DNA of 64,000 bases from Nitrosopumilus sp. Its GTDB lineage: Archaea; Thermoproteota; Nitrososphaeria; Nitrososphaerales; Nitrosopumilaceae. Under the pieces are notes generated by a model that made no database searches, was not told the origin of the DNA, and saw only the letters and a list, made by a program, of their open reading frames with translations. Positions 19,696-24,864 of this stretch are shown piece after piece. The stretch's first letter is position 1; every line of letters starts with the position of its first letter. The DNA is taken from contig OZ250186.1 in the NCBI GenBank assembly GCA_965238275.1, positions 928,001 through 992,000 of the forward strand, read 5' to 3'. The translations under genes were made by a program, and so were the position numbers.

Positions 19696-21174
19696 TTGAC
19701 AAAGGTACTGCACGACATTGAAAAAAGAATCATCAAGGCCATCAAGGATGATGAAAGTGTAGGCCGGCCACCATACCCGAAGAATTCCCTGAAAGATACC
19801 ACCACTCTCTATACCACGCTTGGAACCATGACCGGACTCTCACTGGATCAGGTTAGAAGGGGAATTGAATGGCTTAGACTCAAGCGCCTCATACGTGTGG
19901 ATTTGGAATCTACAAATGCATTCTGTATGGCCCGAAACGGTCAGGAGTCCCTTGAGAATAAACTGCCTGAGAGGAGGCTGATGAATCTTCTCAATTCCAA
20001 GAGTCCTAGGAACCTCCCTGATCTGCAAAGGGATCTTGGACCATTACTTGGACCTGCGATGGGAATTGCAAAAAAGAACGGCTGGATAACCGTATCGGGC
20101 GGATCAGTATCACTCCGGGAATATCCTGGGGAACTGCTTGCTGAAAAGGCACTCGAACGGTTTAGAGATCCCGCCGCTCAAGCCACTGAAAATGATGCAA
20201 GGCAAGGTCGGATCGGCTTGTCCGAAGACAAGTTCAAACCTGGAGAATTGGCCTCGTTGGATCGTCCAGGGTTTCTTGACGTGACAAAGGTAGTGAAGAG
20301 ATCCGTGTCCCTTTTGGATTCTGTACAATCAATTGATCTGTCCGACTCTGACGGGATAGACGTGGCGGCTGGTGTCCCAAACCTTGTTGTGGCAAGGAGA
20401 CACCCACTCAAGGACGTGATTGATGAAATTCGTGAGATCTTCGTCACACTGGGATTCACCGAGATAAGCGGGAATATGACCCAGTCAAGCTTTTGGAACT
20501 TTGATGCACTCTTTACACCGCAGGATCATCCTGCCAGAGAGATGCAGGATACGTTCTATCTTGATTCTGCCGTTGCTGCTACTAGAGATGTCGCATCTGA
20601 CTTGCAGATGAGAAGGGTTTCTGAGTCGCACCGGAGAAACTGGCGATACCGGTGGGATGCAGAACAGGCACGCAGGATGGTTCTGCGAACCCACACCACA
20701 TGCGTTACCATCCGGCATCTGGCAGAACACAGGCCCGAGGAGGCCAGGTTCTTTTCGCTTGGCCGTGTCTTTCGGAACGAAAAGGTAAGCTACAAGCACC
20801 TTGTGGAGTTCAACCAGATCGAAGGGGTGGTAACCGGAAGGAATGCAACCCTGCGCGATCTGATGGGAATCCAGAAGGAATTCTACAGGCGGATTGGAAT
20901 TACCAAGGTCAAGTTCTGGCCTACGTTCTTCCCGTATACGGAGCCGTCGCTTCAGACGATGGTGTACAACGAAAAGCTTGGAAAATGGGTGGAGCTGTTC
21001 GGGATGGGCATCTTTAGAAGGGAGGTCACAAAGCCGCTTGGAATCGACAGACCCGTACTGGCCTGGGGAGGAGGAATAGAGAGGATTGCAATGCTCAGAT
21101 ATGATCTGGACGACGTCCGGGAGTTTTACAACAACAATCTGGACTGGTTGAGGAATGCTGTAAAATGCCAGTAG
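19696..21174 (+). CDS. pheS: Phenylalanine--tRNA ligase alpha subunit
   Basis: FWNFDALFTPQDHPAREMQDTF, LRTHTT, FPYTEPS. Confidence 0.97.
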   Translation: MTKVLHDIEKRIIKAIKDDESVGRPPYPKNSLKDTTTLYTTLGTMTGLSLDQVRRGIEWLRLKRLIRVDLESTNAFCMARNGQESLENKLPERRLMNLLNSKSPRNLPDLQRDLGPLLGPAMGIAKKNGWITVSGGSVSLREYPGELLAEKALERFRDPAAQATENDARQGRIGLSEDKFKPGELASLDRPGFLDVTKVVKRSVSLLDSVQSIDLSDSDGIDVAAGVPNLVVARRHPLKDVIDEIREIFVTLGFTEISGNMTQSSFWNFDALFTPQDHPAREMQDTFYLDSAVAATRDVASDLQMRRVSESHRRNWRYRWDAEQARRMVLRTHTTCVTIRHLAEHRPEEARFFSLGRVFRNEKVSYKHLVEFNQIEGVVTGRNATLRDLMGIQKEFYRRIGITKVKFWPTFFPYTEPSLQTMVYNEKLGKWVELFGMGIFRREVTKPLGIDRPVLAWGGGIERIAMLRYDLDDVREFYNNNLDWLRNAVKCQ

Positions 21175-22814
21175 TGGAGATTTCACATTCGCGCCTTCGA
21201 AGGCTGGTGGGCGGCTCCGCCAGAAAACAGATCTCAGAGACTCTGCCGTTTCTGGGGCTTGACATAGAATCCGAACACGGGGACGCAGTGCGCGTGGAGT
21301 ACAGCCCGAACAGGCCTGACTACTCTACTGATTTTGGGATCGCGCTGGGCCTGCAGGGGCTGCTTGGGCTCAAAACGGGGGCAGTCAGACTCATGGTAAA
21401 GGAATCTGACAGATACCAAATCTCAGTCAGCCCCGGCGTCTCCAAGATTCGACCGTTTGTGACCGGAATAGCCGCCATGGGTGGCCGAATCAATGACCAC
21501 ACCATCAGACAGCTGATGGCGATGCAGGAGGATCTCCATATGGGGCCGGGCAGAAGAAGGAAAAAGTCCTCCGTTGGGATTCATGACATGGACAGGATCA
21601 AGTTCCCCCTGGAATATACTGCAACATCGCGTGATCACCGGTTTGTCCCGCTAAACTCAAAGGACGATCTCTCCATCTCTGAGATTCTCAGTACCACGGA
21701 CGTGGGCCGGAACTATGGCAGCGTCCTTGAAGGACACACCATGGTTCCGATAATCCTTGATGCCGCCCAGGACGTCATCTCGTTTCCGCCCATCATAAAC
21801 TCCGCCCTTACCACCGTGACTACAAAGACCAGAAACCTGTTGGTGGAGATAACCGGAACCGGCAAGGCCGATGCAGAAGACATGCTTGCCGTGGTGGCAA
21901 CCGTCCTGCAGAGTGCCGGATTCTCCCTGGAGACGCTTGGCGTGTCGGGCCCGAAAAACTCCACCCCGTCCCTCAAGACCAGGCACATGACACTGGATCC
22001 ATCACTTGCAAACCAGACCCTTGGACTGAACCTTGGCCGGTCAGCCGTGGCATCTGCCCTCAAAAGATCAAGGCTTGATGCGTCCGTCCGGAAGGGAATG
22101 ATCGAATGCACCATTCCTGCATACCGCTTTGACATACTCGGACCAATGGATCTTGTGGAGGAGGTTGCACTTGGATACGGAATACAGAATCTTGATCCCG
22201 TCCTGTCCCCGTCCCAGACGCTTGGACAGGCAAGCCCTGTCTCATCGGCACTGAGCCTGCTTGACCAAACCATGATCGGGCTGGGATTCCTTGAGGCGCT
22301 AAACTCCAGCCTCACCAGCATGGACACACTCTACACCCTGACAAACAGGAAACCCCAAAACCCGTTTTCGGTACTTGACTCAAAGAGTCGCGAGCACACC
22401 GTCCTGCGCGACTCCATACTGCCAGAACTACTTGAGAACCTTTCAAGAAACATACACGTGGCATACCCGCAGAAAATCTTTGAGACCGGCACCATATTCC
22501 TTGAGGGCGACCCGGTATCTGAGGTTACGAGTCTTGCCGCAGTCAGCGCCCATGATGATGCAAGCTTTACTGAGATAAAGTCCGTACTCCAGTCGTGCCT
22601 TGGAACGGGGTTTGGAATCAAGATACAGACTCCCCCCTCCGCCCATCCGACATTCCAAAAGGGCAGGTGCGCTGACATTGTGATAAATGATCAAAGGGCG
22701 GGGACAATCGGGGAGATCGACTCTGAGGTAGTCCGGAACCACAAGATCCGCAATCCGGTTGCAGGCTTTGAGATGTTCCTGTCCGGAACCGTCCTAAAGC
22801 CCTCTCAGCCATGA
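21165..22814 (+). CDS. pheT: Phenylalanine--tRNA ligase beta subunit
   Basis: PNRPD, SFPPIINS, PAYRFDI...DLVEEVA; overlaps pheS. Confidence 0.96.
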   Translation: MPVVEISHSRLRRLVGGSARKQISETLPFLGLDIESEHGDAVRVEYSPNRPDYSTDFGIALGLQGLLGLKTGAVRLMVKESDRYQISVSPGVSKIRPFVTGIAAMGGRINDHTIRQLMAMQEDLHMGPGRRRKKSSVGIHDMDRIKFPLEYTATSRDHRFVPLNSKDDLSISEILSTTDVGRNYGSVLEGHTMVPIILDAAQDVISFPPIINSALTTVTTKTRNLLVEITGTGKADAEDMLAVVATVLQSAGFSLETLGVSGPKNSTPSLKTRHMTLDPSLANQTLGLNLGRSAVASALKRSRLDASVRKGMIECTIPAYRFDILGPMDLVEEVALGYGIQNLDPVLSPSQTLGQASPVSSALSLLDQTMIGLGFLEALNSSLTSMDTLYTLTNRKPQNPFSVLDSKSREHTVLRDSILPELLENLSRNIHVAYPQKIFETGTIFLEGDPVSEVTSLAAVSAHDDASFTEIKSVLQSCLGTGFGIKIQTPPSAHPTFQKGRCADIVINDQRAGTIGEIDSEVVRNHKIRNPVAGFEMFLSGTVLKPSQP

Positions 22815-22962
22815 CGCTGCAGACAGTATTGCCCCTGCCGAAAGAATTCCAGCCCCTATGACTGACTCTACCACCAGCCTCTGATGGATTGCCCTCTCCT
22901 CTGAGCCAGGCAGCATGCGGGATTCTGAACCAAGCCCCTCCTCAAGATACTGAATCTGGGGA

Positions 22963-23122
22963 TATAGCGACGCGCATAAATTCGTGCAGTCTAACCTGCG
23001 ACTGCAAACTCTGCGCTTTCCGGCGCTCTGTCAGACCTTCTATAGCGGCGAGCGAAAGTTCGTGCAAACAGATCTCTCTGTAGCATGTCCTGATGCTCTT
23101 TCCGGCGCTCTGTCAGACCTTC
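22963..23122 (-). repeat. Tandem duplicated element-end module (78 and 82 bp); putative omegaRNA 3' region
   Basis: Identical 25-mer CTTTCCGGCGCTCTGTCAGACCTTC at 23016-23040 and 23098-23122; TIR-like 26-mers at 22963 and 23041; unrelated 27/31-nt segments between. Confidence 0.85.
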
Positions 23123-24543
23123 CAATATTGTCGTCGTTGCCGGGTCCAAGCCGACCTGTCGAATTGTTCATTCCAGAACTATCCGATCCGTGATCCTCGC
23201 GCCTTGTGACGACCTCGACACCTGCAATGGTGCCTCCACGATTCCCGTGGGCTTGGCCGCCAGTCTCCTCCGTATGGAGACAGTCATTATCCAAAATGTT
23301 TTTTGCCACGTTCTTGTCGGCATGGTGGCACCATCCGCATGAGACGCAGACAAATGATTCGCCGTTCCTGGATTTCTTGTCCACTACCCCGCAGGCAGCG
23401 CACCTCTGGCTTGTATGTGCGTGTTCCACGCGTCTTGAAATTCCGCCTTTCTTTTTCATCTGCCATTCGACTTGCGTCCTGAACTCTCCCAGACGGGAGT
23501 AGGCCATCTCGCGGTTGAGTCCGGTCTTTGATGCCTTTCCGTTGGATCTTCTCATTCTGGTCAGATCCAGGTCTTCCAAAAACAACGCTGACAACCCCCT
23601 TGTTATCCGCCTGGCGATGCCTGTCTCGTTGTGTCTTTGCCTGTCAGATGTCTTTTTCAATTCCTTTTTTATCACGCGGCCTGTTTTCCCCCACTCCCTT
23701 GATCCACGTTTGTATTTGGATCGCCGTGCACGCAGCCTGTCAATTTTGTCGCCGCCATGCCTTCTGCATCCGCCAGGAACATTGTACAGTCTCTCGTTTC
23801 CGTGACTGTCTGCCACTGCGGCAAGGTGCCTGACTCCCAGGTCAAGTCCTGCAATTTTGCCGCCGACGTCTGCAGGCTCCGGATCCGGAATTTCTGTTTG
23901 CAGGCACAGTCTGAACTTGCGCTGGAAATCAGCCGTCTTGCGCGTGACCTTGTCGGTAACGTCGATCATTTGAAATGACACCAGCCTGCCTTCAGGCATT
24001 GTCGTGCGCGGTTTTACTTCCCCGAGTCCCGGCAGGAACACGCACCCGTTATCACGCAGTTTTGGCCTTCCGCGGGAATTTAACGAACGCAGCCTGGTGA
24101 TCTTTTTGTCCCACCGCCTCATCAGGCTTGACGGCTCTGTCCACCTGTTGTGCTTGTACGTTTGACATTTGCCAAGCCTTGCCTGTTTTTTGCGCCAGAC
24201 GCGCTTGTGGTGCTTGAGCCGGTTTGCCTTGCGGAATTTGGCCACGGCCTGGAATGCCTGTTTGGATGCTGCCTCGTGCATGTGGCATGTGCCAGTCAAG
24301 TCAAATTTCTTGCGCCACATCGTTATCATATTGTTTAGGTCAAATTGGGTAATCCTAGGATGTGCAAGCTTCATCATGATTGTCATGTCGTAAACAATGT
24401 CGGTTTCCCGGGAGTATTTCACGATCTTGCGTGAGAGTTCCCTGGATTGTTTTATCTTGATGTTTTTGCTGACAATCATGCATGCAAATAGAATTGGTTT
24501 CTTAAAAGGAGTGTAAAAGTGCACGAACTTATGCTTTTAGCTA
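22965..24543 (-). mobile_element. Non-autonomous TnpB-carrying element with terminal inverted repeats and TA duplication
   Basis: Ends TA|TAGCGACGCGCATAAATTCGTGCA (22963-22988) and TGCACGAACTTATGCTTTTAGCTA|TA (24520-24545); boundaries fixed by the host ORF reconstruction. Confidence 0.85.
23040..24479 (-). CDS. tnpB: TnpB-family RNA-guided endonuclease
   Basis: RuvC-I AGLDLG, RuvC-II FLEDLD, Zn finger TSQRCAACG...CVSCG, RuvC-III HADKNVAKNI; likely ATG at 24479 with TTTTAAG box upstream. Confidence 0.92.
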   Translation of the reverse strand: MIVSKNIKIKQSRELSRKIVKYSRETDIVYDMTIMMKLAHPRITQFDLNNMITMWRKKFDLTGTCHMHEAASKQAFQAVAKFRKANRLKHHKRVWRKKQARLGKCQTYKHNRWTEPSSLMRRWDKKITRLRSLNSRGRPKLRDNGCVFLPGLGEVKPRTTMPEGRLVSFQMIDVTDKVTRKTADFQRKFRLCLQTEIPDPEPADVGGKIAGLDLGVRHLAAVADSHGNERLYNVPGGCRRHGGDKIDRLRARRSKYKRGSREWGKTGRVIKKELKKTSDRQRHNETGIARRITRGLSALFLEDLDLTRMRRSNGKASKTGLNREMAYSRLGEFRTQVEWQMKKKGGISRRVEHAHTSQRCAACGVVDKKSRNGESFVCVSCGWCHHADKNVAKNILDNDCLHTEETGGQAHGNRGGTIAGVEVVTRREDHGSDSSGMNNSTGRLGPGNDDNIGRSDRAPERASGHATERSVCTNFRSPL

Positions 24544-24720
24544 TAGTCAAAGATTACGACCATGGAGCCAAGAACCACCATTACAATCCCCACCAGAAAG
24601 AGCATCGTACGGTTCATCTGATTCCAGTCATAAACTGCATCATTTAACCCTGGTCTAATCCGGTATTCCTTCCTGGGCCAAATTCGTGCAGGTCCTGCCC
24701 GATACAAATGTGGCTTTTTT

Positions 24721-24864
24721 CATATACTCTAAGTTTTTAGCCTGATGCCCCTGTTAGGAGATCATGATCAAAAATAGTTTTAAAAAATTAGACAGACGCG
24801 GATTTTCTGATTGTAGATATGGAGTTCAACTCCAGATACATATACTCTAAGTTTTTAGCCTGAT
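24721..24864 (+). repeat. 26-bp perfect direct repeat, two copies 92 bp apart
   Basis: CATATACTCTAAGTTTTTAGCCTGAT at 24721-24746 and 24839-24864. Confidence 0.9.

Follow-up and report, generated by a model that had tools for sequence, protein, structure and literature searches.

Which enzyme moves an archaeal tnpB gene that lies alone between terminal inverted repeats (TIRs), and does the RNA-guided nuclease that it encodes serve the element that carries it? The question is raised by a 64,000-nt stretch of Nitrosopumilus sp. DNA (assembly GCA_965238275.1, contig OZ250186.1, positions 928,001 to 992,000; hereafter the window), in which an insert at 22963-24545 interrupts the gene of a small membrane protein. 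Prokaryotic TnpBs have mostly been studied in elements that move by scarless peel-and-paste transposition (IS200/IS605 and IS607). The insert described here is very probably a non-autonomous IS630/Tc1/mariner element, in which an OMEGA module (obligate mobile element-guided activity; here tnpB together with an omegaRNA of ~250 nt) stands in the place of the transposase gene.

The host is an ammonia-oxidising archaeon of the genus Nitrosopumilus. Its genome (G000) is a single contig of 2.217 Mb, 99.9% complete, in which the insert occupies C1:950963-952545; the two comparison genomes used throughout, G017 and G146, belong to the same genus.

Structure of the insert and its empty site

The insert measures 1583 bp, that is, 1579 bp plus one TA per side. 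Its ends are 26-nt inverted repeats at 22963-22988 and 24520-24545, which agree at 21 of 26 positions (counted by hand from the alignment). Its sole long open reading frame (ORF) is tnpB; no DDE transposase is encoded, so that the insert is a non-autonomous element and not a full insertion sequence. A preliminary description of this DNA, made from the letters alone, had given just this architecture (1579 bp, 26-bp imperfect inverted repeats, tnpB as the only gene), and the sequence bears it out. The TIR pattern given there has three matches in the window, with 0.00 expected from 100 shuffles; the third, at 23041-23066, is an extra inner copy of the right end that the description did not include.

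The site without the element is found in both G017 (flank identity 78-89%) and G146 (91-94%), each with a single TA where the window has TA-element-TA, and in both genomes the frame of the small membrane protein is open, reading ...VVIFDYPQIRYLE... at the junction. Removal of the insert with one TA had been predicted to restore this host frame; the uninterrupted orthologues fit the reconstructed junction, and the breakpoints are exact. The features of the locus, from the left end to the right end of the element and then outward, are as follows.

24544..24545, no strand: TA, left copy of the 2-bp target-site duplication, a single TA in the G017 and G146 empty sites
24520..24543, minus strand: left-end (LE) TIR, upstream of tnpB, inverted repeat with 22963-22988
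23040..24479, minus strand: tnpB coding sequence, 479 aa plus stop, with Pfam, NCBIfam and PDB matches
23041..23280, minus strand: predicted omegaRNA scaffold, overlapping the 3' tail of the ORF and stopping at the inner right end (covariation, RNA-library contigs)
23041..23066, no strand: inner right-end (RE) TIR copy, exactly the family consensus right end (pattern search, copy comparison)
22963..23040, minus strand: unit A, an extra 78-nt 3' module that includes the outer right-end TIR (22965-22988) and the TA at 22963-22964 (direct repeats D2, D3)
24546..24707, minus strand: disrupted small membrane-protein gene, N-terminal part (ORF list; the G017 orthologue is intact)
22794..22962, minus strand: disrupted small membrane-protein gene, C-terminal part, overlapping the 3' end of pheT
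21165-22814, plus strand: pheT, its 3' end overlapped by the C-terminal part of the disrupted gene

The TA at 22963-22964 is the second copy of the target duplication and is counted here within the coordinates of unit A.

Two minor observations concern the flanks. At 24680-24691, in the flank on the promoter side of the disrupted gene and 135 bp beyond the element, 12 nt repeat part of the outer right-end TIR exactly, which may be due to chance. A contig from RNA library X17 joins 22821-22915 to 24545-24575 with 43 other letters between and 11 mismatches; most simply, it represents the uninterrupted gene of a related strain.

A family of copies with a 2-bp target duplication

Other copies, the search for which had been proposed as a check, do exist and carry the same TIRs. 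The element has 32 matches in G000, namely itself, 18 near-full-length copies and 13 fragments; both TIRs are present in 16 copies, of which 12 have an ORF of at least 447 aa. All family ends begin with TATAG, and the TA is therefore ambiguous in every copy, so the comparison of filled and empty alleles is what matters.

Nine insertion sites were compared with relatives, and four of them are informative. At all four, the flanking dinucleotide occurs once in the empty allele and twice in the filled one (TA at three sites, TG at one). These are the window copy, for which the empty alleles of G017 and G146 hold one TA; the G000 copy at 1821559, with an empty allele in G017 and a single flanking dinucleotide there; the tnpB element of G146 itself, for which the window supplies the empty allele (TA at 22795-22796); and the G000 copy at 2157229, which is flanked by TG...TG and has a single TG in the empty alleles of both G017 and G146. 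The last site is decisive: since a direct repeat other than TA cannot belong to an inverted repeat, the element ends in ...CTA and duplicates 2 bp of its target. The 2-bp target duplication is thus real and lies outside the TIR, which settles an early caveat that insertion without any duplication would look the same. The other five sites are uninformative, one lying in a repeat-rich diverged gene (G000 2139391), two having other indels at the site (1008928 and 316709), one being without a left end (2146754) and one without synteny (1838551).

The G146 element (L059 1518-3030) lies in opposite orientation and is inserted 167 bp from the position of the window insertion, where it occupies the TA in the stop codon of the small ORF, a position that also falls among the final codons of pheT. 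The small membrane-protein gene has been hit twice, in G000 and in G146, by independent insertions of tnpB elements.

IS630 transposases with corresponding ends

If the element carries no transposase, a helper may be sought among resident elements with homologous ends. Profile searches of the complete G000 genome gave 0 matches for Y1_Tnp (PF01797; the control was positive in 6 of 14 genomes) and 0 for Resolvase (PF00239; positive in 12 of 14). DDE_3 matches over the cut-off number 32 in G000 and sort into four IS630 families. The load of IS630 is heavy for the genus, with 16 matches in G017 and 110 in G146 beside the 32 of G000, and at least four families.

A comparison with IS630 ends, as the preliminary description had recommended, did find homologous TIRs in G000 and its relatives. 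The ends of the tnpB elements match those of group-IV IS630 at 16-23 of 26 positions, versus 6-12/26 for families I and III and 12-16/26 for family II. An intact IS630 at G000 1873253-1874348 encodes a 337-aa transposase (NCBIfam transpos_IS630, 175.5 bits; cut-off 100) and lies in a (GTA)n run in which a single TA restores the phase. The left-end TIR of the window copy matches IS630 ends of G017 (L104_b, L090_b) at 20/26 positions and the end of a miniature inverted-repeat transposable element (MITE) of G146 at 22/26.

The correspondence extends to the two ends separately. In a 1106-bp IS630 of G146 (339-aa transposase), of which 18 copies were examined, the N-side end matches the family left end at 22-23/26 positions and the right end at 18-19/26, and the C-side end matches the family right end at 22/26 and the left end at 20/26. 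With LE equivalent to the N-side end and RE to the C-side end, tnpB occupies the place of the transposase gene in the same orientation. G017 carries two further tnpB subfamilies, at 47-57% protein identity, and their ends match G017 IS630 ends at 22-23/26. In G146, MITE-like elements of 156-277 bp with the ends of the tnpB elements are also present (L126 2724-2879, L118 1306-1582, L120 1353-1528); one of them keeps ~195 nt of the omegaRNA region.

Because of these IS630-matching ends, the LE/RE correspondence, the TA/TG duplication and the lack of a Y1 or serine transposase, mobilization in trans by IS630 transposases is the best-supported mechanism, as far as sequence comparison can tell. The initial view of a tnpB/omegaRNA cargo moved in trans by IS630 is supported by the same evidence (TIRs, empty sites, matched IS630 ends, no Y1 or serine enzyme), and the opposite outcome, copies with IS605-type ends, was not encountered: the complete genome has no Y1 or serine transposase, and the copies carry TIRs.

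A TnpB under purifying selection

The tnpB ORF spans 23040-24524 on the minus strand, with a likely ATG at 24479 giving 479 aa. Its Pfam matches are OrfB_IS605 (2.9e-15) and Cas12f1-like_TNB (6.7e-15), and it exceeds the cut-off of the NCBIfam model guided_TnpB (114.5 bits; cut-off 100). The second-best NCBIfam model is IS607_TnpB, at 78.8 bits and under its cut-off of 350; IS200_TnpB scores 53.9, under 425. An intact RuvC D-E-D triad had been read from the window, and D213, E302 and D388 are indeed kept, together with four Zn-finger cysteines (CxxC...CxxC), across 15 aligned relatives. In the PDB, TnpB and Cas12f score best (ISDra2 TnpB, 7.5e-7); a giant-virus TnpB-like entry, 9b0l, ranks lower (8.6e-5), and no closer affinity to Fanzor or giant-virus proteins was found there.

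Over the first ~400 codons, dN/dS (nonsynonymous to synonymous rate) lies at 0.13-0.23 in six comparisons, with a lowered dS in the ORF tail; the window tnpB against a B copy (a subfamily defined below) gives 0.15 over 385 codons. Such ratios indicate that TnpB is under purifying selection. Taken at an identity of at least 47%, the clade is present in 3 genomes out of the 151 of the genus. Of the 48 protein clusters found, ~26 are close relatives (at least 46% identity), and the nearest of the others is 31% identical.

A predicted, structured omegaRNA that reaches into the right end

Over the final ~250 nt before the right end, 13 copies from three genomes can be aligned. Folding of the alignment gives 10 helices with 52 pairs, 95.1% of the cells paired and 23 pairs changed on both sides; none of 500 shuffles reaches the observed value, and slid controls give 1-7. 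The last helix draws on bases of the TIR. Compensatory changes keep the structure across subfamilies that are 47-57% identical in protein, which indicates that the ~250-nt 3' RNA structure is under selection. An Rfam E-value scan of 22700-24800 gave no match.

In metatranscriptome X17, contigs lie on 23041-23271 only, with none over the coding region; in X18, a contig runs across 23041-23468. DNA runs cover the entire element. The RNA-library contigs are a hint of abundant RNA.

A mosaic copy with two right ends

The window copy departs from its family in ways that bear on its guide. Its first ~1100 nt (LE and two-thirds of tnpB) are a diverged "A-type," 75% identical to the main family, and the ~405 nt that follow, as far as the inner right end, are "B-type," 98-99% identical to core copies and 85-99% over all 15. 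On this composition, the window copy is evidently a recombinant of two subfamilies.

The inner right end is the end point of 17 of 18 other near-full-length copies. In the window, 22963-23122 consists of two right-end modules in tandem, 78 and 82 nt long; the inner one is identical to the family consensus, and the outer one is the real transposon boundary, as fixed by the empty sites of G017 and G146; a DNA contig of run X4 covers the flank, unit A and the inner end. Unit A has its own copy of a 29-nt scaffold motif, the one that supplies the 3' halves of two long-range helices, and holds a compensated version of the last helix, and its TIR co-varies with the left end of the window copy. A search for unit A across 151 genomes of the genus recovered no more than its first 26-36 nt, as IS630- or MITE-type ends (the first 36 nt in a G146 MITE end), and otherwise weak matches of 72-73%. 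The double right end would arise most simply if a main-family element had inserted into an older one and the two tnpB genes had then recombined. Such a modular 3' end might allow guide modules to be swapped through nested insertion and recombination.

Since the conserved scaffold stops at 23041, short of the outer end by 78 nt, the guide proposed in the preliminary description, TATCCCCAG..., read from the 3' flank, is not assured. A guide taken from the host flank, from 22962 outward, would hold only if unit A completes the scaffold.

Flanking bases and the role of the nuclease

The flanks are asymmetric. All 33 left ends have C just before the TA (17/17 in G000, 16/16 in G017 and G146 together), and the symmetrical position at right ends has C in 15 of 40 (9/24 and 6/16; Fisher p = 1.8e-9). 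Position -3 is T in 13 of 16 G000 copies and mostly A in G017. The flanking C is target DNA, present in five of six empty alleles. TTGAC, an early candidate for the target-adjacent motif (TAM), is not common to the copies; only the C at -1 and T or A at -3 recur.

Several results weigh against the reading of the insert as an IS630-mobilized OMEGA element whose nuclease acts at its flanks. The autonomous IS630 of G146 itself has C at -1 on both sides (N-side 14/15, C-side 15/18), and the 33/33 at left ends of tnpB elements is not significantly above its 29/33 (p = 0.11). The right-flank deficit is weaker in the seven youngest copies, in which G follows the right TA in five of seven (by eye), as opposed to two of nine older G000 copies; the seven, at least 96% mutually identical, are those at G000 316709, 708708, 1724457, 1779808, 1821559, 1935336 and 2139391. 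Folded as a single sequence, both right-end modules included, the 3' region shows no significant gain in stability over shuffles (z = -1.77; 4 of 100 as stable), and the fold does not tell which module pairs with the scaffold. The RNA evidence consists of assembled contigs of a multi-copy sequence, without strand, ends or level, for which DNA carry-over is possible. The guide of the window copy may come from unit A and not from the host flank. A composite with an IS630 transposase and this tnpB within one TIR pair was not found, and the 32 TIR-bounded copies of G000, G017 and G146 have no room for a transposase gene. Finally, the ends match closely in just one intact IS630 of G000, of which the N-side end agrees with the family left end at only 18/26 positions.

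IS630 elements prefer CTAG targets, which fits the C on both sides of autonomous copies. With C on both sides of the autonomous G146 IS630, the invariant left C alone cannot be read as a TAM, and we have dropped it as direct TAM evidence. What stands out in the tnpB elements is instead the lack of the symmetrical G on the right side. Their right-end 15/40 is far below the G146 IS630 baseline (p = 1e-5); for the group-IV IS630 of G000 and G017, with C in 8 of 17 ends, it is the left-end 33/33 that is above (p = 1e-5). Autonomous IS630 copies show no left/right asymmetry, which is thus specific to the elements that bear tnpB. The right-flank deficit may depend on the age of the copy or on the helper transposase used.

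Our preferred explanation of the asymmetry, though one that we hold somewhat more likely to fail than to stand, is that the TAM overlaps the target duplication (C-TA) and that TnpB, reading C-TA, acts as a retention filter. In the main reading of the insert as an IS630-type element, which we hold to be the probable one, a resident IS630 DDE transposase would bind the TIRs and move the element by cut-and-paste. The omegaRNA would run into the right-end TIR, with the sequence just past the right end as its guide, and guided TnpB would cut the empty allele on reading C-TA beside the guide match; the cut would lead to recombinational re-copying of the element. Such re-copying is established for the TnpB of IS200/IS605 and has been suggested for mariner Fanzors. 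At the right junction of the element itself the equivalent position reads A-TA, by which filled sites would be protected, and under the filter the C would let TnpB tell the empty allele (C-TA plus guide match) from that junction (A-TA plus guide match). The insertions driven to fixation, or rescued once cut-and-paste had excised them, would then be those with C upstream of tnpB and no others. If this is true, the C-TA filter explains why C is found at 33/33 left and 15/40 right ends, and the lineage offers a prokaryotic working model of the mariner-Fanzor arrangement; the asymmetry in any case leads to a TAM prediction that can be tested.

Alternative explanations

The alternative that survives best, though we think it unlikely, keeps IS630 mobilization and denies the nuclease a part in it: tnpB and its RNA would be passengers without a role in maintenance of the element, whether as regulator, as defense function or in decay. 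ORFs are broken in 4 of 16 copies, the C at left ends may be merely the CTAG preference of the transposase, and DDE cut-and-paste already breaks the donor site, so that the benefit of a nuclease is debated (PMC13565253, a 2026 review, of which, as of the other papers cited below, a part of the text is drawn on). Against decay or idleness stand the D-E-D triad and Zn finger, invariant in 15 relatives, the dN/dS of 0.13-0.23, the RNA structure kept by compensatory change across subfamilies, and a flank asymmetry that autonomous IS630 copies lack.

It is very improbable that the TIRs resemble those of IS630 through old ancestry or convergence and that the present mover is another, unrecognised enzyme or TnpB itself. 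TIR identity is imperfect (16-23/26) and the composite element has not turned up, as this explanation would allow; yet tnpB subfamilies and IS630 subgroups co-vary within each genome, IS630 copies use the same 2-bp TA target, and MITEs with the same ends occur in G146.

More improbable still is a tnpB-only element of IS200/IS605 type (the IS1341 group), moved by a Y1 TnpA in trans and inserted 3' of a fixed motif without duplication. Elements with tnpB only are commonest in IS200/IS605 (PMC13565253), the TA of a single copy is ambiguous, and one base beside the left end is invariant (C, 33/33). That base is the only invariant one in the flank, however, TTGAC not being common to the copies; the complete genome has 0 Y1_Tnp matches, the 26-nt TIRs are held in common with elements that encode IS630 transposases, IS200_TnpB scores 53.9 against a cut-off of 425, and the TG...TG copy, with a single TG in two empty alleles, contradicts insertion without duplication.

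An IS607-type element moved by a serine recombinase can be set aside as barely credible. In its favor, IS607_TnpB is the second-best NCBIfam model at 78.8 bits; against it, that score is far under the cut-off of 350, G000 has 0 Resolvase-domain matches (control positive in 12/14 genomes), and TIRs and a 2-bp duplication, present here, are absent from IS607 (PMC13565253).

Relation to known systems

The IS630-mobilized OMEGA element favored here adds a member to a kind that is already known, the IS630-linked TnpBs, and does not represent a new one. A prokaryotic TnpB branch ("DDE-6") linked to IS630 transposases, with symmetrical ends, is described by Altae-Tran et al. (2023, PNAS; PMC10691335), who report inverted repeats in all six DDE-linked TnpB branches and also solo TnpBs, presumed to move in trans, whose ends resemble those of loci that carry a transposase. 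A pairing of tnpB with TIRs and TA duplication had been taken in the preliminary description to be best known from Fanzors, a view that must be revised in light of these prokaryotic loci. The 2026 review repeats the account of IS630-linked TnpB and states that Fanzor TAMs include the 5' duplication (PMC13565253). A survey of archaeal IS630 (PMC13343696) has 0 occurrences of "tnpb" in the part of its text drawn on. A full-text literature search found no paper on TnpB in Nitrosopumilus IS630 elements; the supplements of PMC10691335, which it did not cover, may list the clade.

As in the DDE-6 and solo TnpBs, tnpB here lies inside the symmetrical inverted ends of IS630 and within 250 bp of an end (PMC10691335). 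DDE-6 loci differ in that they encode an IS630 transposase and a separate helix-turn-helix (HTH) protein beside tnpB, which no copy here does (PMC10691335); no neighboring IS630 transposase gene was found in any tnpB copy viewed (32 copies in G000, G017 and G146). Target duplication, empty sites and flank asymmetry are reported here, and the part of PMC10691335 drawn on is silent about them. What the present analysis adds is a new archaeal clade (DDE-6 being compared by description only), exact empty sites and the TG duplication, and also matched helpers, RNA covariation and the flank asymmetry.

Like the Fanzor1 systems, the element has a TnpB-family nuclease as cargo of a TA-duplicating TIR transposon (Tc1/mariner in their case), and a Fanzor TAM that includes the 5' duplication matches the C-TA reading proposed above (PMC13565253). 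The hosts of Fanzors are eukaryotes and giant viruses, whereas the host here is archaeal and the protein an ordinary prokaryotic TnpB, closest to TnpB/Cas12f. With the IS1341 group the element shares tnpB as sole gene, a 3' omegaRNA, multiple copies and a transposase in trans; that group is moved by Y1 and is without TIRs or target duplication, in contrast to the TIRs, the 2-bp duplication and the lack of Y1 found here (PMC13565253). IS630 MITEs likewise have TIRs and the TA target in common with autonomous IS630, and the derivative described here differs from them in being 1.5 kb long, with a selected protein gene and a structured RNA and not just ends.

What a cut-and-paste DDE transposon gains from an RNA-guided nuclease has been discussed as a question for Fanzors and in the 2026 review (PMC13565253). 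The Nitrosopumilus lineage is a compact natural system in which to take it up, with recent polymorphic insertions that have exact empty sites, an identifiable helper transposase, and tnpB/omegaRNA modules of three diverged subfamilies, each with ends that vary in step with those of its helper. In annotation, the label "IS200/IS605 family" is wrong for these tnpB genes.

Further elements

At G000:C1:883619-891004, what seems to be one tnpB element is interrupted by an insertion of ~6 kb, with a family-I IS630 copy inside it. G146 and G134 hold a second TnpB family, only distantly related (27-35% identical; L144-L150), with different inverted repeats of ~23 nt; its elements are flanked by direct repeats of 7-9 bp, which points to another DDE-type helper. 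Elements with TIRs and TnpB only seem to be common in the genus.

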